A DNA stretch of 38,458 nt from the sequence record ON470580; one strand, written 5' to 3'. Position 1 is the stretch's first letter; each line of letters begins with the position of its first letter. The position numbers and the translations under genes are program-made. Positions 2,312 through 31,655 of the stretch are shown one piece after another. The notes under the pieces are model-generated. The model worked only from the letters and a program-made list of their open reading frames with translations. It did no database searches and was not told where the DNA came from. Source of the stretch: Escherichia phage vB_EcoM-606R7.

Positions 2312-5300
2312 CCCGACGCGATGACTGCATAATTGACACAACCCTGCTGTCGATCAGATCCACCAGTCCCCTGGCTGAGCGCGCATCTATCTCGCCATTG
2401 CTCCCTTGATTCTGAATGCTGATGTGATACACGGGAGAATAAACAAATCCACCACCACCATTCACATTTCCAATGGCCCTGACCCCAAGAGAGCCGTCCG
2501 CTGCCCGTGTCAGTGGCATGATTGCTTCAGGCCCGGCCTCGCCCATCAACCCGGCACCTTTCGCAAAAGCAAAATACGTCGGTGTATCCACAATAGTGTT
2601 ACTGTAAGCACTCAGATTTGCCGATGTGTAAACACCACCTTTTGCGTTTGCCACTGCCCCCGAAATCCATCCGCCGACCGTACCAAGCCACCCTCCGGCA
2701 CCGGAGAGTGATTTCAGTCCGTTAACAATGGCTGCATTCATCAGAATTTTTGAAACTTCCCGGAGAACTGAACTCCCCCAGTTCCTCCAGTCCACAACAT
2801 TCCCGGCCAGTGCATCGGAAATATTTGATACCAGCCCGTCCATCGTGGAAACGACAGCATCTGCCGCCTGTGAAGCATAATCGGTGGCACTGTCTGCCCA
2901 GTTGGTCAGTCCCTCCTGGAGTCCGGCATTCCAGTTATTACGTAAAGCATCGGCCTTTGCATAATAATCCTGCTGATCGCTGAGACGCTCTTCCAGATAT
3001 TTTTTATTCAGTTCTTTCTCCTGTTTCCACAGGGCTTCTTCAATTTCTCCGGCCTGATACTGTCTCAGCAGCTCGTTATTTTTCTGCTCAAACGCCTGCC
3101 GGATACTCCACATTTCCTGGAGTCGTTCACGCATCCGTGAGCCTTCACCATATCCCAGCAACTGCGCTTCGTCAGATGCCCGGGCACTGGCATTACTGTC
3201 CGCCAGACTGCTCTCATACGCAGCAAGCTGCTCACGAATCTTTTTCTGGTCGATGAGTGCTGCATTCTGCAAAAGCGTTTTTTTCTGCGCTTCTGACAGG
3301 GTTGATAATTCGCCCTGACTGACCTGATATTTCATCTTAGCCAGTTCAGTATTCTGCCCTGCCAGTGCTATTTGTTCTTTTTGCTGTTTAATCAGCCGTT
3401 TATAAATATCTTCTGTTTTTTCCGCTTCGGTCTTTTTATACGCTTTGGGTTTATTTGCCTGGTTATTTCGCCAGGCATCCAGTGAGTTATTGATATAATT
3501 CTGTCTGGCTGTCTGATACGCCTCTCCCACAAAGCCGAGATCATCCGCAGCATAACCCAGGCGGGCACGCTCACGGGCTTCCCCCTTCAGGCGGGACAGA
3601 GCCAGTTCGCGCTCGCTGTTATTCAGTGCGGTCTGCTGTTTATCATCCAGGGTTGCCTGTGGTAGCCGTAACGGTACATTCACCAGCCCCTGTCGCTGCA
3701 GAAGTAATTCATTACCGAGCCCGAGAAGGCGATTAAACTCGGTATGCTGCCCATTCATGATCAACAGGGACTGATACGCTTTGTTTTGTTCCGCGGCCTG
3801 TTGACGGATCAACGCCACCCGTCGCTCCTCCAGCCCGGCAAGCACATCCTGAATGGATTGCGCTTTGCCCTGCATTTGTGTGAGACGGGACTGTTCAACT
3901 GCCAGTTGATTTGTTGCTTCTGCAAGCCCTTCTGTGACAGTTTTTACCGACGTCATGTGGTTAATCATAAAACCGTTATCGGTTGTCCAGCCCGGGTTTG
4001 CCAGCACATACTGATAGCCAGCAATTTTTTCCTGTAAGGATTTAATCTTACTTTTCTGCTCGTCAATTAACCTGTTTTGCTCATCAAGTGCCTGCCGCGT
4101 CTTTTCCTCATTATCTGACGCTTCAGGAAGCGACATTGCCGACGTTTTCTGGCGAATTTCGTCGATTGTTGCGGCATACTGGCGTGCAGATTCTCTGGCC
4201 TGCTCCTGATTCTGATACATCGTGTACCAGGCCGTCGCCCCCAGCATGACGAGTCCCGGCACACCACCAACCAACCCCAGCGCACCACTTAACAGACGAC
4301 TCCCCACTGACGTGACAGTATTCAGCGTTGTCTGTGCAGCTGTTCTGGCCGCAATATTACGGGTAAGTGACGCCTGGGCAGCTGTCAGCTTCGCTTCTGC
4401 TGCGGCCTGCCTTTCGGTACCGCGAGCAGCAACAACCGCCTGTTGCGCACGATAAACCGCCGCACGCGCCCTGGCGGTTGCTATCTGTGTCCCCCGAAGT
4501 TGCGCTTCAGCAAGAGCCACTTCGTTTCTGGCTGCAGTAATTAATCCGGCAGTTGCAGATCCAGCAGACGACGCCATATTGCCAAAATATCGGGCTACCC
4601 CGACGGCAACCAGTGCGCCAGCTGCAGCAGCCACGGTATCAATATTGTCTGCAACACCATTCAACACCCCGGTGAGTGTCTTTGTCACTCCGCTTGCCTC
4701 GTTCGCACCACCAACCCAGGCCATAAAGGCGTTTTCAACTTTGGTTGCAGAGGATGAAACAGTATCAGGCATTGCTGCATATTCATCACGCAACGCCCCA
4801 AGCTGACTAATCAGTGCAGGAACAACCTTATCGGCGGTCAGTTTTCCGTTATCCGCCATGGCCTTCAGATCCTTACGGGCAACACCCATTCCCGCAGCCA
4901 GCGCACGAATAACACGATCGCCGTTCTCATTCACAGAGTTAAATTCTTCACCGCGCAGCACTCCCTGCGCCAGTGCCTGACTGAACTGCGTGATCACCGA
5001 ACTGGCTTCTGCTGTACTGGCACCGGATAATTTCAGGCCCGTGGAGATCGCCTCGGTGACTTTCAGTACCTCCTCAGAACTGTAGCCATACTCCCGCATG
5101 GAAGCTGCAGAGCGGGCAAAAAGGCTGGCGTTATCAGAAAACGCCGTTCCCGTTCTCTGGCTGATTGCCATTAATTCACGTTGTGATACCTGAAAATCAT
5201 CACTGGACTGTGAAGCCTGCTTCAGACGGGCATTTACTGAATTCCACTCATCGGCGAGAGAAATAAGATGACCGGTAGCAAAAGCTCCGGCAAATGCCCC

Positions 5301-14767: not shown

Positions 14768-15247
14768 CTACTTAATGCACTGAGTGCGGATATACTCCTG
14801 TGCCCCTTCCAGTTGCATCTGCATCGTCATCAGCCGCTCTCTGAGGGTGAAATAATCCCGTTCAGCGGTGTCTGCCAGTCGGGGACTGGTTGCATTATCC
14901 ACGCCGGAGGCGGTGGTGGCTTCACGCACTGACTGACAGACTGCTTTGATGTGCAACCGACGACGACCAGCGGCAACATCAGCGCGCAGAGTTTCATTTT
15001 CAGCTTTCGCATTGGCTAATTCTCTCGAGTACTTTGCATCGAGCGCAGCAACATCACGCTGACGCTGCTGCATGTCAGCGATGGTGGCGGTCACCTGCTT
15101 CAGCTCACTGACTTTTTTATCACGCTGTTCTTTGTAGGTGATGGCGTTATCACGGTAATGATTGACCGCCCACGACAGGCAGACGATGATGCAGATAACC
15201 AGAGCATAAATAATCGCGGCGACTCTGCTCACTGATCTATTCCCCAA
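14768..15247 (-). CDS. Rz: Spanin inner-membrane subunit Rz
   Basis: Near-identical to recalled lambda Rz ([25 protein letters not shown]...[28 protein letters not shown]). Confidence 0.85.
14830..15012 (-). CDS. Rz1: Spanin outer-membrane lipoprotein Rz1, embedded in Rz in the +1 frame
   Basis: 60-aa ORF with lipobox VVGC and a proline run ([30 protein letters not shown]), matching recalled lambda Rz1. Confidence 0.85.
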
Positions 15248-15762
15248 CAGGCTAATGCGCTTTCCTGGTCACGACGAATAACCTGTCCATAGCAGTTATT
15301 TGAACGTATGCGGCAATCGCGCCCACCATCTTTTATCCACCAGCGAATCGCCTCGCATGCGCCCTTACGATCACCGGCATTCAGCCGCTTATAAAACGTC
15401 GACGGAAAACACTTACCGGGGCCAATGTTATAGGGACAAAATGACGCGATACCCGCTTTTTGTGGTTCGGTCAGTGGTACTTTAATATTGCGCTCCACCC
15501 ATGCCAGCGCCTTATCACGCTCAATGGCGTTGACCTGGTCGCATTTTTCCTTCGACAGTTTCATACCGGGAAAAACGGGTTTTCCATCCACCATCGTGGC
15601 ACCCCGACAGATGGTCCAGATGCCGGAACCATCACGGTATGCCGTTGTGTGGTTACCTTCTTTTTCATCCAGAAACTGGTCGAGAATATCAGGCGCGGGC
15701 GCACCGACGGCAATCAGTGCCAGAACGGCAGCCGACAGGCCGTATCTGATTTTTGCGTTCAT
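15229..15762 (-). CDS. SAR endolysin (T4-type lysozyme, phage 21 R-like)
   Basis: N-terminal weakly hydrophobic signal-arrest-release segment ([16 protein letters not shown]) followed by the E-x8-D-x5-T catalytic spacing ([16 protein letters not shown]). Confidence 0.85.
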
Positions 15763-15825
15763 GGATATTTATCAGGATTTATCGGTTTCTGCCCACGGAC
15801 AGGTTTATCTGTTCCGGTCAGTGAC

Positions 15826-16176
15826 TTAAGGTTGTGATTCCGGAGGAGTCTTCAGAGAACCAGTAATTCTTCCTGGTAGCTTTCCTTTGTAGGTTATCCA
15901 TACATTCTGCGCCTCTAAAATTACGGGGCGCTTTTCCGGCGACTGCTCATCCCCTTCACATAACCCGGCAGCGACATCCAGGAAGACCTGTCTGATGCTC
16001 CTTCTGGCCGCTGCCTCATAAAACTCCAGCGCAGCACCTTCAACACGGTCCAGCGAGATGTCCAGGTCAAAAATTTCACCGTCAAAGCGTTCTTTGTCCT
16101 GTAATGCTAAAGTTACCGTAACTTTATTCTCAAAATTGCGGATCCCTTTCACAATCAGTTCATAGTTTTGAGTCAT
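15826..16176 (-). CDS. Hypothetical protein inside the lysis cassette (YdfR-like)
   Basis: 116-aa ORF between holin and endolysin; resembles the Qin ydfR product in position and, from memory, in sequence. Confidence 0.5.
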   Translation of the reverse strand: MTQNYELIVKGIRNFENKVTVTLALQDKERFDGEIFDLDISLDRVEGAALEFYEAAARRSIRQVFLDVAAGLCEGDEQSPEKRPVILEAQNVWITYKGKLPGRITGSLKTPPESQP

Positions 16177-16180
16177 TGAA

Positions 16181-16396
16181 TTACTCTCCCCGTGCAGCCT
16201 TACGCTTGTCTTCTCTGATTTTGAAGTACAGATTTGTCAGATAAGTCAGGAAGCCCAGAACCAGACTCCCCAGTACACCAATCGCAGCCCACTGTGAAGG
16301 ACTGACCTGATCAAGCCACTGTAAAAACCAGTAGCCAGCACTGCCTGCGGAGGTGCCGTAGGCAATGCCCGTTGAAATTTTGTCCATGGATTTCAT
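16181..16396 (-). CDS. Pinholin, phage 21 S-type, with dual-start motif
   Basis: 71-aa ORF starting [29 protein letters not shown], matching recalled S21; Met1 and Met4 give the antiholin and holin forms. Confidence 0.85.
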
Positions 16397-16456
16397 AGCC
16401 TCACCTCCGCAAATAACGGATGGCGTAGTTTTACACTGAGAAATGAAAGGGATTTG

Positions 16457-16482
16457 AAAAGAAAAACCCGCAAAAGCGGGCG
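16457..16482 (-). terminator. Terminator-like hairpin upstream of the holin gene
   Basis: Minus-strand RNA reads CGCCCGC-UUUU-GCGGG followed by UUUUU. Confidence 0.45.
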
Positions 16483-16688
16483 AAACGATATATACAGAAA
16501 GGAAAGCACTCTATCCAACAAACCAACCACAGTTAATTGGAATAAAAGCAGAGTGCTTATGAATGATCGCCTGCCCGAAGGTTAGTATTTCTGCACAGCA
16601 ATTTTGCAAAAAAAGGCGATCATTCATAACTTAAACGTCTTTCAGTCACTCCGGGATTTCCCATCATCGCAGACTGAAAGACTCTAAC

Positions 16689-16763
<75 letters not shown>

Positions 16764-16766
16764 ATA

Positions 16767-16842
<76 letters not shown>

Positions 16843-16844
16843 AC

Positions 16845-16921
16845 TGGACCGCCACCGGGGACTCGAACCTCGCACACTCAACTTAAAGGGTTGACGCTCT
16901 TTCCTGATGAGCTAGTGGCGG
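16845..16921 (-). tRNA. tRNA gene with an atypical anticodon loop (CCUUUAA; best guess anticodon UUU, Lys)
   Basis: Sits in the array with 2-nt spacers. Acceptor CCGCCAC/GTGGCGG (C1-G72), TAGCTCA D-arm start, T-loop TTCGAGT, CCA encoded; C at position 33 and one T-stem mismatch. Confidence 0.5.
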
Positions 16922-16922
16922 T

Positions 16923-16998
16923 TGGTGGCCCTTGCTGGATTTGAACCAGCGACCTGGCGATTATGAGTCGCTCGCTCTCACCACTGAGCTAAAGGGCC
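16923..16998 (-). tRNA. tRNA-Ile2-like (gene anticodon CAT; ileX/ileZ type, alternatively elongator Met)
   Basis: GGCCCTTTAGCTCAGTGGT...CGACTCATAATCGCC...GGTTCAAATCCAGCAAGGGCCACCA resembles recalled E. coli ileX. Confidence 0.75.
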
Positions 16999-17116
16999 GG
17001 GCGCAGGATAATAATGTTACGAAATCAATGTTGCAAGCATTCAAAAATCACCTGGTTAAAAATCACCCTTATCTCCTCCACCAGCGCATTCACCATGCCT
17101 ATCCGAGATAAGTGGC

Positions 17117-17155
17117 ACAAAAAACCCGCTTGTGGGCGGGTTTTGTTTGCTTTTG
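17117..17155 (-). terminator. Bidirectional intrinsic terminator between Q and the tRNA array (tR'-like)
   Basis: Hairpin CCCGC-TTGTGG-GCGGG (17125-17140) flanked by A6 on one side and a T-rich tract on the other. Confidence 0.6.
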
Positions 17156-17195
17156 CCATCACGTACAAAATCGGCAAAATATCAGATTTGCATGA

Positions 17196-17224
17196 AATAT
17201 ATGCCTTTCAATCTACTTTTGCAA
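17196..17224 (-). promoter_or_regulatory. Candidate late promoter (pR'-like): -35 TTGCAA, 17-bp spacer, -10 TATATT
   Basis: Hexamers read directly on the minus strand at the 3' end of Q, about 40 nt upstream of the terminator. Confidence 0.5.
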
Positions 17225-17903
17225 CACTTTGCTTTGAAAATGCCGCCTTTTGTTTTGAACGTGTTCTCATTACAAACAATAAAGCCTCACTATCAAGTCG
17301 GTGAAAAATGTGTTTCATTGCAACCCAGTGACGAGTAAATGTTTTGGACCAGTTTTTAGTTGTCACTCCCGCCAGTAATGCCAGCTCCTGGTATTCATAA
17401 CCTTCCCCACCAAAAAGTTCTGCTTTTACTGCCTGCGCCGCCAGCCAGATTAATTTTTTCAGGCGTTCCTGCGTTTTCCCTGCAATTTTTCTGGTACCGG
17501 ATTGAGTATTAAATTCATTCCACGCCCACTGTGTTATCGCGATCTGATATTCCCAACAAATACTCCCGCTGTAACACCACAACAACCAGGCTTTATGATG
17601 TTCTTCAAGAGACAGAACAGCCCGCCGCCACGATGATGTCGAAAACTCAACCGGACTGACCAGAGGAATTGACGTCCCCTTCGCCAGCGATTGCTTTCCC
17701 GGGATTGGTGGATTATCCCGCGTTATCATTTTTCCAGTCACTTCATCGCGGTACCGGATTTTTTTTCGCCTGTAACGCCCTGTATCGAACATGGCATTCT
17801 CTTGCCAGGCTTCAAGCTGACCTTTTGTTGCCCCACTCAAATCAGCGGTGGCGATAATGAGCTGCTCACGCACAAACTGTAAATACTGGTTATTCATGCG
17901 CAC
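17208..17903 (-). CDS. Putative late-gene antiterminator Q
   Basis: 231-aa ORF directly upstream of the late promoter, terminator, tRNA and lysis block, and downstream of rusA; family assignment is mainly positional. Confidence 0.5.
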   Translation of the reverse strand: MRMNNQYLQFVREQLIIATADLSGATKGQLEAWQENAMFDTGRYRRKKIRYRDEVTGKMITRDNPPIPGKQSLAKGTSIPLVSPVEFSTSSWRRAVLSLEEHHKAWLLWCYSGSICWEYQIAITQWAWNEFNTQSGTRKIAGKTQERLKKLIWLAAQAVKAELFGGEGYEYQELALLAGVTTKNWSKTFTRHWVAMKHIFHRLDSEALLFVMRTRSKQKAAFSKQSVAKVD

Positions 17904-20354: not shown

Positions 20355-20510
20355 TTACTCCTCAGGTTCGTAAGCTGTGAAGACAGCGACCTCCGTCTGG
20401 CCGGTTCGGATTCGTACCTCGCAGAGGTCTTTCCTCGTTACCAGTGCCGTCACTATGACGGTTAAACAGATGACGATCAGGGCGATTAGCATCGCCTTTT
20501 GCTGCTTCAT
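20355..20510 (-). CDS. hok: Hok/Gef-family type I toxin (HokD/RelF-like)
   Basis: 51-aa sequence MKQQKAMLIALIVICLTVIVTALVTRKDLCEVRIRTGQTEVAVFTAYEPEE matches recalled HokD; long untranslated leader upstream (20511-20800). Confidence 0.85.
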   Translation of the reverse strand: MKQQKAMLIALIVICLTVIVTALVTRKDLCEVRIRTGQTEVAVFTAYEPEE

Positions 20511-20800
20511 AGCCTGCTTCTCCTTGCCTTTCGGCACGTAAGAGGCTAACCTAGATTTGCCGTTCATAGATTGAGCCTCAGATTAATGTTAAGCGTCTTG
20601 CAGGACGCGTAATGTTAACTGGGGCTTTTCTCTACCTGCCGTTGGTGTTCATGCCCGAGGCAGATAGCCTCAAGCACCCGCAGCAATTCTACTTAACTCT
20701 CCTTTTCCCGCAAACCGTTTTTACCCCCAGCGGCAAATCGAATACACCACCAGCGCCACCGCCATCGCAATTCCTACCGTTGTGAATGCTTCAGGCCAAG

Positions 20801-24688: not shown

Positions 24689-25114
24689 TCAATGCACAGC
24701 CACAATATTTCCTGCAGGGCCACCACGATTCATCTGGTTGAAACCAGCGATCGCCACTGCGACAAAATCATCAGCGTCTCTCACCAGTCGTTCCCGCGTC
24801 TCCACTAGTTCCCGAAAATAGGCTGAGCTATGGCTGCGCATTCGGGCCACCAGCAGAGGCGGCATTGCTTTTTCGATAGCTGGTAACAACGCCTGAATTT
24901 TTTTAACCGCATCAGGGGTGTCTTTCTCCACCCAGCGGAAAATTTTCTGAGTATTGCGAGCCAGGGCTTCCGGATGGCTGTCGTTATACAGTTCCGGGAA
25001 CGTCATTCCCAGCTCGAAATACGCTTTGGTAATTTTCGCAGCCGGTACTTTTTCGCCGTCCGGATGCGCCCAGGCATTCATCGCCATGCGGATATGTTCA
25101 TGTTTGATTTTCAT
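24689..25114 (-). CDS. ydaT: YdaT-like protein (CII-position regulator / putative toxin)
   Basis: 141-aa sequence MKIKHEHIRMAMNAWAHPDGEKVPAAKITKAYFELGMTFPELY... matches recalled Rac YdaT. Confidence 0.8.
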   Translation of the reverse strand: MKIKHEHIRMAMNAWAHPDGEKVPAAKITKAYFELGMTFPELYNDSHPEALARNTQKIFRWVEKDTPDAVKKIQALLPAIEKAMPPLLVARMRSHSSAYFRELVETRERLVRDADDFVAVAIAGFNQMNRGGPAGNIVAVH

Positions 25115-27230: not shown

Positions 27231-27288
27231 TTTCTGGTGACGTTTGGCGGTATCAGTTTTACTCCGTGACTGCTCTGCCGCCATTTTT
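27231..27288 (+). ncRNA. dicF: DicF-like small RNA (cell-division inhibitor)
   Basis: TTTCTGGTGACGTTTGGCGGTATCAGTTTTACTCCGTGACTGCTCTGCCGCC followed by ATTTTT matches the DicF sequence as I recall it; GGCGG...CCGCC terminator stem; sits between ydfC and dicB. Confidence 0.6.
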
Positions 27289-30426: not shown

Positions 30427-30630
30427 ATGAGCAGCTTATTTTTAACCGAAGATGAATTGCTAATATTAACGGGCTGCAAATATGCAAGCCACCAGCGAAA
30501 ATGGTTAATGGAAAACGGGCTTCCGTTCTATACCAATCGTAGTGGCAAACCGATTGTCAGCCGGGAGCTATTTACCTGCAATAAAACTTTACCACCACGC
30601 GAGGTAGAGCCGAATTTTGGTGCGATCTGA
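30427..30630 (+). CDS. xis: Excisionase (Xis)
   Basis: 67-aa ORF immediately upstream of int with a one-base stop/start overlap. Confidence 0.6.
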   Translation: MSSLFLTEDELLILTGCKYASHQRKWLMENGLPFYTNRSGKPIVSRELFTCNKTLPPREVEPNFGAI

Positions 30631-31655
30631 TGGGAAGACGAAGGAAAAATCCTGAACACGAAAAATTACCTCCAAATGTATACCCAAATAAATATAGTTA
30701 TGTATGGAAACCAACATCCAGAGAATCTGTCACACTAACCGCCATCAAGGATGGTTTGGCTGCTTTATGGAAAAAGTATGAGGAAACTGTAAATAATCGC
30801 GATCGTGCAATGACATTCGGTCGCTTGTGGGAAAAATTCCTCGCCAGCGCCTATTACAGTGACCTTAGTCCAAGAACACAAAAAGATTATCTGCAACATC
30901 AAAAAAAGTTGCTTGCCGTATTCGGTAAGGTACCAGCGGATTCCATAAAACCAGAACACATCCGTCGATACATGGACAAAAGAGGGGAGCAGAGTAAAAC
31001 GCAAGCCAACCATGAAAAAAGCAGTATGTCCCGTGTTTACAGTTGGGGGTATGAGCGAGGGTACGTGAAGGCTAACCCATGTGCAGGTGTAAGTAAATTC
31101 AAGGCCAAAAACCGCGAACGATATGTAACCGACAAAGAATACCAGGCAGTATTAAGCGTTGCACCTCTTCCTGTTTTTATCGCAATGGAAATTGCCTATC
31201 TGTGTGCAGCGAGGGTTTCCGATGTGTTATCGCTGAAATGGGAACAGATTGGAAACGACGGGATATTCATCCAGCAAGGGAAAACCGGAAAAAAACAGAT
31301 AAAAGCATGGAGTCCACGATTACAGGCAGCGATCGAAAAAGCAAAACAGTTACCAAAATCTGCCTATGTGATCAGCAATCAATACGGCAACCGATATATG
31401 TACAAAGGCTTTAACGAAATGTGGGTAGAAGCAAGAAATCGCGCAGGCAAAATTTCAGGTATTTTAACCGACTTCACCTTTCATGATCTGAAGGCGAAAG
31501 GAATTTCAGACTATGAAGGAAGCAGCCGGGATAAGCAACTTTTCTCTGGTCACAAAACCGAAGGGCAAGTGCTAATCTATGACAGAAAGGTTAAAGTTTC
31601 ACCAACACTTGATGTCCCGTTACCTGAAAATATTCCAAGAAAATATTCCAAGTAA
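30630..31655 (+). CDS. int: Tyrosine integrase (lambda Int family)
   Basis: 341 aa; N-terminus MGRRRKNPEHEKLPPNVY parallels recalled lambda Int MGRRRSHERRDLPPNLY; C-terminal catalytic region with FHDLKAKG; ends 53 bp from tRNA-Ser. Confidence 0.85.
   Translation: MGRRRKNPEHEKLPPNVYPNKYSYVWKPTSRESVTLTAIKDGLAALWKKYEETVNNRDRAMTFGRLWEKFLASAYYSDLSPRTQKDYLQHQKKLLAVFGKVPADSIKPEHIRRYMDKRGEQSKTQANHEKSSMSRVYSWGYERGYVKANPCAGVSKFKAKNRERYVTDKEYQAVLSVAPLPVFIAMEIAYLCAARVSDVLSLKWEQIGNDGIFIQQGKTGKKQIKAWSPRLQAAIEKAKQLPKSAYVISNQYGNRYMYKGFNEMWVEARNRAGKISGILTDFTFHDLKAKGISDYEGSSRDKQLFSGHKTEGQVLIYDRKVKVSPTLDVPLPENIPRKYSK

Follow-up and report, generated by a model that had tools for sequence, protein, structure and literature searches.

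Genes and features of the locus

The window analysed here, by which we mean the whole stretch of 38,458 nucleotides, carries a lambdoid prophage, with all of the relevant genes on the minus strand. Read from high to low coordinates, an integrase gene is followed by genes for a CI-like repressor and a CII-like activator, by replication genes, and by genes for a DUF968 protein, RusA and the antiterminator Q. After Q come four tRNAs, an S21-type holin, a DUF1327 protein, a lysozyme, Rz/Rz1 and an HNH gene, and beyond the last of these lie the genes for the small and large terminase, portal, protease, major head and tape measure proteins. Judged by Pfam and PHROGs, the late operon on the 3' side of the unit that is the subject of this report is complete and lies on the same strand. 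The features discussed are collected in Table 1.

Table 1. Features of the Q region and its surroundings, from high to low coordinates
Feature	Coordinates	Strand	Basis or remark
Integrase gene	30630-31655		Adjoins tRNA-Ser
Q antiterminator gene, 229 aa	17208-17897	-	PF06323 (Phage_antiter_Q)
-35 element, TTGCAA	17219-17224	-	Within Q coding sequence (codons Ala-Lys)
Spacer of 17 nt, AAGTAGATTGAAAGGCA	17202-17218	-	Last Q codons and stop; candidate Q-binding element (QBE)
-10 element, TATATT	17196-17201	-	Non-coding
Inferred +1, first A of AAA	17189	-	6 nt past the -10 element
Predicted sigma70-dependent pause element, TGATATTTT	17176-17184	-	TG at +6/+7, TATTTT at +9 to +14
GCC at +15 to +17, G/C-rich discriminator segment	17173-17175	-	Sequence; analogy with phage 82
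Expected pause sites, U at +25 and A at +26	17164-17165	-	Inferred from phage 82
Predicted terminated leader RNA, about 71-73 nt	17117-17189	-	IsrJ-like counterpart of lambda 6S RNA
Leader hairpin 1 (+11 to +39), UUUUGCC.AUU / loop / GAUGGCAAAA	17151-17179	-	MFE fold
Intrinsic terminator (tR'/t82 equivalent)	17117-17144	-	Stem 17144-17121, U6 17124-17119
Second promoter-like site, TTGCAA-17-TATTAT, G/C-rich discriminator CCTGCGCC	17008-17036	-	First tRNA begins a few nt beyond it
tRNA array: Met(CAT), Lys(TTT), Thr(TGT), Gly(TCC)	16689-16998	-	ARAGORN, Rfam
Second intrinsic terminator, GCCCGC-UUUU-GCGGGU then UUUUUCUUUUC	16466-16481	-	About 70 nt before the holin gene
Lysis cassette (S21-type holin, DUF1327, lysozyme, Rz/Rz1)	14768-16396	-	Pfam, PHROGs; first late genes that read-through would reach

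The product of the Q gene matches the Pfam family PF06323 over 217 of the 220 profile positions (E = 8.6e-92) and has no other Pfam match. This is the Q82 family, one of three unrelated families of Q proteins (Ebright laboratory, PMC9388147). The protein is 77% identical to Q of phage 82 (X92588), 74% identical to Q of phage 434 and 75% identical to Q of PhiR47_2; the last is itself 97% identical to the phage 82 protein, which makes PhiR47_2 the closest available proxy for phage 82. Translation likely starts at the ATG at 17897, which overlaps the rusA stop codon as ATGA (17894-17897) and thereby suggests translational coupling of the two genes; the program that listed the open reading frames places the start two codons earlier, at GTG 17903. 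The stop codon is the TGA at 17210-17208. None of the solved structures searched has credible sequence similarity to this Q82-family protein, the lone match, a phage lysin at E = 0.005, having been judged spurious. According to the 2022 paper on Q-lambda, it is not known whether Q82 works by the nozzle mechanism.

The promoter at the end of Q

A promoter scan finds TTGCAA-17-TATATT on the minus strand (17224-17196). The Q stop codon falls within the spacer and the promoter therefore overlaps the 3' end of Q, as the original prediction had claimed. Its description there as near-consensus is slightly generous, since the site has 9 of 12 consensus matches. The limits that had been proposed for the unit as a whole, 17117 to 17224, bracket it exactly.

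Promoter-like sites number 11 in 7 kb, against 7.6 +/- 3.1 expected from shuffled sequence, and terminator-like sites 8 in 7 kb, against 7.8 +/- 3.1, so that neither is enriched. Because both occur at chance frequency, promoter and terminator motifs alone prove nothing, and the case for a late switch is made instead by homology and conservation, that is, by the sequence elements, their register, their persistence among relatives and the family of the adjoining Q, all of which can be observed directly. The window contains a single instance of the composite of a -35 element, a 17-nt spacer, a -10 element, 6 nt and AAATCTGATAT, and 100 shuffles contain none.

In phage 82 the QBE lies between the -35 and -10 elements, within the segment from -31 to +30 (Wells et al., PMC4914094). 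The spacer of the present promoter is a candidate QBE, assigned by position only; since it differs from that of PhiR47_2 at 5 of its 17 positions, binding of Q at this site is something that we infer from the biochemistry of phage 82 rather than show.

The initial transcribed sequence and its register with phage 82

The transcript from the inferred start opens AAAUCUGAUAUUUUGCCGAUUUUGUA, and the full-length Rfam alignments of isrJ and isrK, discussed below, begin close by, at 17192 and 17191, respectively. The AAA start and a TG-extended -10-like element together read AAATCTGATATTTT (17189-17176); these are followed by GCC, then by AUUUU, and the nucleotide at 17165, which is +25, is a T (U in the RNA).

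The reference for these elements is the study of the phage 82 late promoter by Bird, Strobel and Roberts (PMC5001585). Wild-type 82 pR' starts with AAA, at which the polymerase stutters. Its pause element is -10-like, nearer to consensus than that of lambda, and of the extended -10 type, and experimental insertions at +9, +15 and +18 mark where the elements are bounded. The discriminator GCC at +15 to +17, with an A/T-rich stretch next to it, sets the position of the pause, which falls at +25/+26 with U at +25. The leader in the window has every one of the 82 pR' features described in the text of that paper, in register. Compared with PhiR47_2, it is identical from +1 to +17 and differs at +18 and +21. 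Because the -10-like element occupies +9 to +14, the pause would be expected at +25, as in phage 82.

The original prediction had drawn a parallel with the pR'-qut-tR' arrangement of lambda. The logic is indeed the same: in both, Q would be followed by a constitutive promoter that contains a DNA site for Q, and there would be a sigma70-dependent promoter-proximal pause, a short terminated RNA, and Q-dependent read-through into lysis and morphogenesis genes. However, the homologue is phage 82 and not lambda, as the Q family and identity and the pause element at +6 to +14 attest. Q-lambda belongs to the unrelated family PF03589, whereas the Q of the window matches PF06323 only; lambda pauses at +16/17, opens its transcript with the -10-like element, and makes a leader of 194 nt (6S RNA). 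With phage 82, in contrast, the window shares the Q family, the placing of the promoter over the last Q codons, the TTGCAA -35 element, the AAA start, the TG-extended -10-like element, GCC, U at +25, and a short leader predicted to be terminated. The two differ, by way of the PhiR47_2 proxy, at the spacer positions and the two leader positions already mentioned; in addition, the terminator hairpin of the window is unrelated in sequence, and a four-tRNA array and a second terminator stand between its switch and its lysis genes.

The terminator

The terminator hairpin is composed of AAAACCCGC, the loop CCACAA and GCGGGUUUU, and has a 5-bp G-C core. Its folding energy is -12.4 kcal/mol, that of the G-C core alone being -8.0. 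The stem begins 45 nt past the inferred +1 and 51 nt past the -10 element, in rough agreement with the earlier statement that it follows the promoter within about 40 nt. The same statement called it bidirectional, which it is in form, there being an A-run on the 5' side and a T-run on the 3' side on both strands. A first scanner reported the terminator on the plus strand only, because it extended the minus-strand stem into the U-tract (by four U) and the remaining tail failed its T-count rule; our own scan, which counts the U-tract, finds the minus-strand terminator too.

Conservation across Q82-family loci

Loci of the Q82 family were collected from one genome per species, from viral contigs (with two different queries) and from phage records. 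In the pattern used for collection, TTGCA was fixed, as were parts of +1 to +11, and the -10 element, +12 to +14 and +25 were left free; conservation of the -35 element and of +1 to +11 is therefore partly by construction. Nearly all of the Q-bearing loci matched the pattern.

At least 172 loci, which represent 112 distinct sequences, have the same promoter and leader at a constant distance from the stop codon of Q. Among the 112 sequences, the -35 element is TTGCAA or TTGCAG in 109 (TTGCA being required by the pattern), and the -10 element, on which the pattern placed no constraint, is TATATT in 98. Six nucleotides separate it from the start in 111 of the 112, and the start itself is AAA in 106. 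GCC occupies +15 to +17 in 81 and GTA +24 to +26 in 79.

Segment identities were computed on 40 representatives below 93% identity. The mean is 0.97 for the non-coding -10 hexamer, 0.99 for +1 to +3, 0.93 for +4 to +8 and 0.90 for the -10-like element at +9 to +14 (positions up to +11 having been fixed in part by the pattern), compared with 0.78 for Q coding sequence upstream of the -35 element, 0.77 for the spacer between the -35 and -10 elements, and 0.58 for +27 to +45. By single position, T9, A10 and T11 are each 98% conserved, as is T14, and T25 is 90% conserved. A terminator is found in 107 of the 112 distinct relatives, its stem ending between +48 and +114 (median +75), and the stems are of at least 20 unrelated sequences. 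To keep the position while the stem sequence is swapped is the signature of a functional terminator.

These figures bear on the reading in which the hexamers fall in the last codons of Q by coincidence, the hairpin merely ends the early operon to which Q belongs, and the late genes are driven from elsewhere. A 9 of 12 match does occur at chance frequency here, and the -35 element is constrained by coding. However, no stretch of the region is better conserved, over the at least 172 loci, than the non-coding -10 element and the first 14 transcribed nucleotides, the pause element of 82 pR' is reproduced in register, and the homologous module of Gifsy-1, which is no longer beside Q, still makes IsrJ from a promoter of its own. 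Coincidence is, in our judgment, scarcely credible. What the homology and the conservation argue for instead is that 17117-17224 is, very probably, the late-gene control unit of a lambdoid prophage of the phage 82 type.

The predicted leader RNA and its relationship to IsrJ

The 75-nt leader stretch folds into a middle hairpin (hairpin 1 of Table 1) and the terminator, with an MFE of -23.9 kcal/mol (z = -3.4). At gathering thresholds, Rfam finds no family in the leader. Below threshold, isrJ (RF01393) aligns over its full length (1-75, at 17192-17120) with 24.5 bits against a gathering score of 37 (E = 0.007-0.04), and isrK, again full-length (17191-17119), with 22.7 bits against 50. As the matches are sub-threshold, the leader is not to be filed as a member of isrJ. 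It has the isrJ architecture nonetheless, namely a 5' AAAUCUGAUAU, a middle hairpin, which the Rfam consensus has at the same place, and a terminator, directly after a Q82-family gene; and in Citrobacter, Raoultella and Klebsiella loci (L010, L011 and L012) isrJ is found directly past the Q stop codon at 38-70 bits. Going by these resemblances, the leader is a diverged relative of Salmonella IsrJ without formal membership of the Rfam family.

IsrJ itself, an RNA of 74 nt, has been detected in vivo, and its own promoter also drives its expression when it is placed on a plasmid; a stable, Hfq-associated RNA of this size has been shown for Salmonella IsrJ only (PMC2330248). In Gifsy-1 (NC_010392) it scores 100 bits and is preceded by TTGCAAAACTGGATTAAAACGGCTATATT, which is a complete 82-type late promoter and includes a remnant of the last Q codons. 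The module (4015-4121) directly follows the stop codon of anrP and is separated from Q by 0.9 kb. It shares with the window TTGCAA-17-TATATT, the first 14 transcribed nucleotides, the length of about 74 nt, and the three-part RNA of 5' single strand, hairpin 1 and terminator; it differs in the sequences of hairpin 1 and terminator, and in its distance from Q, which the module of the window abuts. To judge by sequence and layout, IsrJ appears to be the late leader of Gifsy-1, an insertion of isrK-orf45-anrP having moved it away from Q. Because this homologous module makes a detected RNA, there is indirect experimental support for the view that a module of this kind both fires and terminates. 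The link further suggests that a published, virulence-associated small RNA of Salmonella is a phage late-leader transcript. The text of the IsrK paper contains none of the terms 'qut', 'late promoter' and 'phage 82'. Within the insertion, 3198-3396 of the same record matches the Rfam C4 antisense RNA and c4-a1b1, a P1 immI-like module.

Among relatives (loci L010-L012 and L131-L177) the middle hairpin occurs in two sequence versions at nearly the same position, GCCA..UGGC and, shifted by one nucleotide, GUCG..CGAC, and it is absent from the leaders of phage 434 and similar loci. In an alignment of 38 distinct sequences, chosen in part by their pairing, 84% of cells are paired, against 24-63% in slid controls; double changes are seen in three pairs only, and covariation is not significant, 98 of 500 shuffles doing as well. 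Isolated compensatory changes within one hairpin class (L171, L108 and L015) are without statistical support.

On this evidence must be weighed the idea that the main role of the unit, or a further one, is that of a small-RNA gene, the product of about 72 nt being an IsrJ-like, Hfq-binding regulator that acts in trans in lysogens, in the manner of StxS, with the Q switch only half of its function. The two Rfam families with which the leader aligns at full length are both labelled as Hfq-binding RNAs, isrJ exceeds its threshold at the same position in relatives, and deletion of isrJ lowers invasion and effector translocation by Salmonella (PMC2330248). StxS provides a precedent for a pR'-tR' leader turned small RNA (PMC7547250), and the leader in the window folds well and has both a terminator U-tail and an A-rich stretch before the terminator. 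Against this, the isrJ score in the window itself falls short of its threshold. Moreover, mean identity past +14 drops to about 0.58-0.65, and this poor conservation, together with a hairpin that shows no significant covariation, argues against a conserved seed. A role as small RNA would also be compatible with function as a switch. We consider it unlikely that the unit is to be understood in this way, and hold the late-gene control unit to be the better reading. Similarly, we doubt that the leader serves lysogens as an Hfq-dependent, trans-acting RNA like StxS, or else that its middle hairpin has a function in pausing, termination or loading of the Q82 type. A corollary, if true, would be that Salmonella IsrJ is the displaced late leader, and hence the true Q target site, of Gifsy-1.

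The arrangement around StxS in the Stx phages, which have Q of the Q21/Q933 type, resembles that predicted for the window in that a short, constitutive, terminated late leader stands upstream of a tRNA array. The sequence just before the first tRNA is also shared (84% over 63 nt), the -35-like and -10-like hexamers and their spacing being identical. The Q family, however, is another one and the leader is unrelated; small-RNA activity has been shown for StxS, whereas the leader of the window is known from sequence.

Between the switch and the lysis genes

The original prediction had late gene expression depend on the reading of Q-modified polymerase through the terminator into both the tRNA array and the lysis genes. 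Such read-through is supported by homology, but the tRNAs probably do not depend on Q alone. Both the Stx2 phage Nil2 and L006, a diverged locus from E. coli, have a counterpart of the second promoter-like site of Table 1, and in all of these the -35 element, the -10 element and their spacing are invariant while the spacer varies; going by this conservation, it is probably the array's own promoter. For the lysis genes, the second terminator, standing between the tRNAs and the holin gene, means that at least two terminators would have to be read through.

Several further observations concern this segment. Stx phages have a tRNA-Ile/tRNA-Arg region whose identity to the segment from about 17063 to 16845, which takes in the tRNA promoter region and the first two tRNAs, is about 90%. 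The tRNA that opens the array, with anticodon CAT, corresponds to one that those phages have annotated as Ile. The second, tRNA-Lys(TTT) (16845-16921, minus strand), scores 44 bits, against 65-74 for its neighbours; the comparison hints that a homologous tRNA has changed its anticodon. From tRNA-Gly to the holin gene there is a 290-nt spacer (16397-16690, minus strand), for which the predicted fold (MFE -99 kcal/mol, z = -5.7) has three long hairpins in addition to a strong terminator, one stem being a perfect 13-bp pairing, AUGAAUGAUCGCC/GGCGAUCAUUCAU; the spacer has no Rfam match.

A model of the late switch

Promoter activity, the pause, binding of Q and read-through are here carried over from the biochemistry of phage 82, on which basis the switch may be pictured as follows. 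From the promoter lodged in the 3' end of Q, RNA polymerase with sigma70 would initiate constitutively at 17189 (+1). Retained sigma70 would then bind again, at the TG-extended -10-like element from +6 to +14, and this element, with GCC at +15 to +17, would give rise to a scrunched pause at +25/+26. In the absence of Q, the polymerase would leave the pause and stop at 17144-17117, releasing an IsrJ-like leader RNA of about 72 nt. Q that has accumulated from the early operon would bind its DNA site in the spacer and engage the paused complex, with the help of NusA, and would travel with the polymerase as an anti-pausing and anti-terminating subunit. The modified polymerase could thus pass the first terminator, the tRNA array and the terminator at 16481-16466, to reach the lysis, packaging, head and tail genes.

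The module is found in 1265 of 5426 complete E. coli genomes, or about a quarter, and in up to four copies in some. Prophages of this type being so common in E. coli, the unit might be the intact but inert relic of a defective prophage, whose Q is perhaps never expressed or is blind to the site; the 5 of 17 spacer positions at which the candidate QBE departs from the phage 82 proxy would fit with such blindness. Yet the Q open reading frame is intact and at least 97% identical over 80 viral contigs, each of which has the same leader; the integrase, repressor, CII-like activator, replication, lysis, terminase, portal, head and tape-measure genes are all present; and a near-identical region is found in a deposited phage record, vB_EcoS-689R5. 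An inert relic is thus very unlikely, and the phage 82-type control unit is again the preferred reading.

The late switch is real, but it is also ordinary, common and well understood, the homologous mechanism having been worked out biochemically for phage 82; the gain to biology is accordingly small. The start of the late operon is now fixed for a very common type of E. coli prophage. At these E. coli loci only Q is annotated; pR', the pause element, tR', the leader RNA and the probable tRNA promoter go unmarked by automated pipelines. The collected loci, moreover, constitute a natural series of variants of Q82 and its candidate QBE, which could help to define the specificity of Q82.

Other features in and near the unit

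On the opposite strand, a perfect CII-type box, TTGCAACACTTTGC (TTGC-N6-TTGC; 17219-17232, plus strand), overlaps the -35 element of pR'. The phage 434 record gives the equivalent site the name paQ. The second TTGC of the box, which lies within the Q coding sequence, is only moderately conserved in relatives. A tblastn search with a lambda cII sequence gave no match; PHROGs finds a gene for a CII-like activator (phrog_163; 24689-25114, minus strand), and the box may therefore be an antisense CII site. A second site on the plus strand, TTGCCA-16-CAAAAT (17153-17180; 9 of 12 matches), is promoter-like, antisense to the leader and directed into Q, a resemblance that is probably due to chance.

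Farther from the unit, a Sok antitoxin RNA (20505-20679, minus strand) exceeds its Rfam threshold and adjoins a 70-aa open reading frame (20355-20567), which is named 'host killer protein' in the near-identical phage record. The DicF small RNA is found, also above its Rfam threshold, in the early-left region (27232-27283, plus strand).
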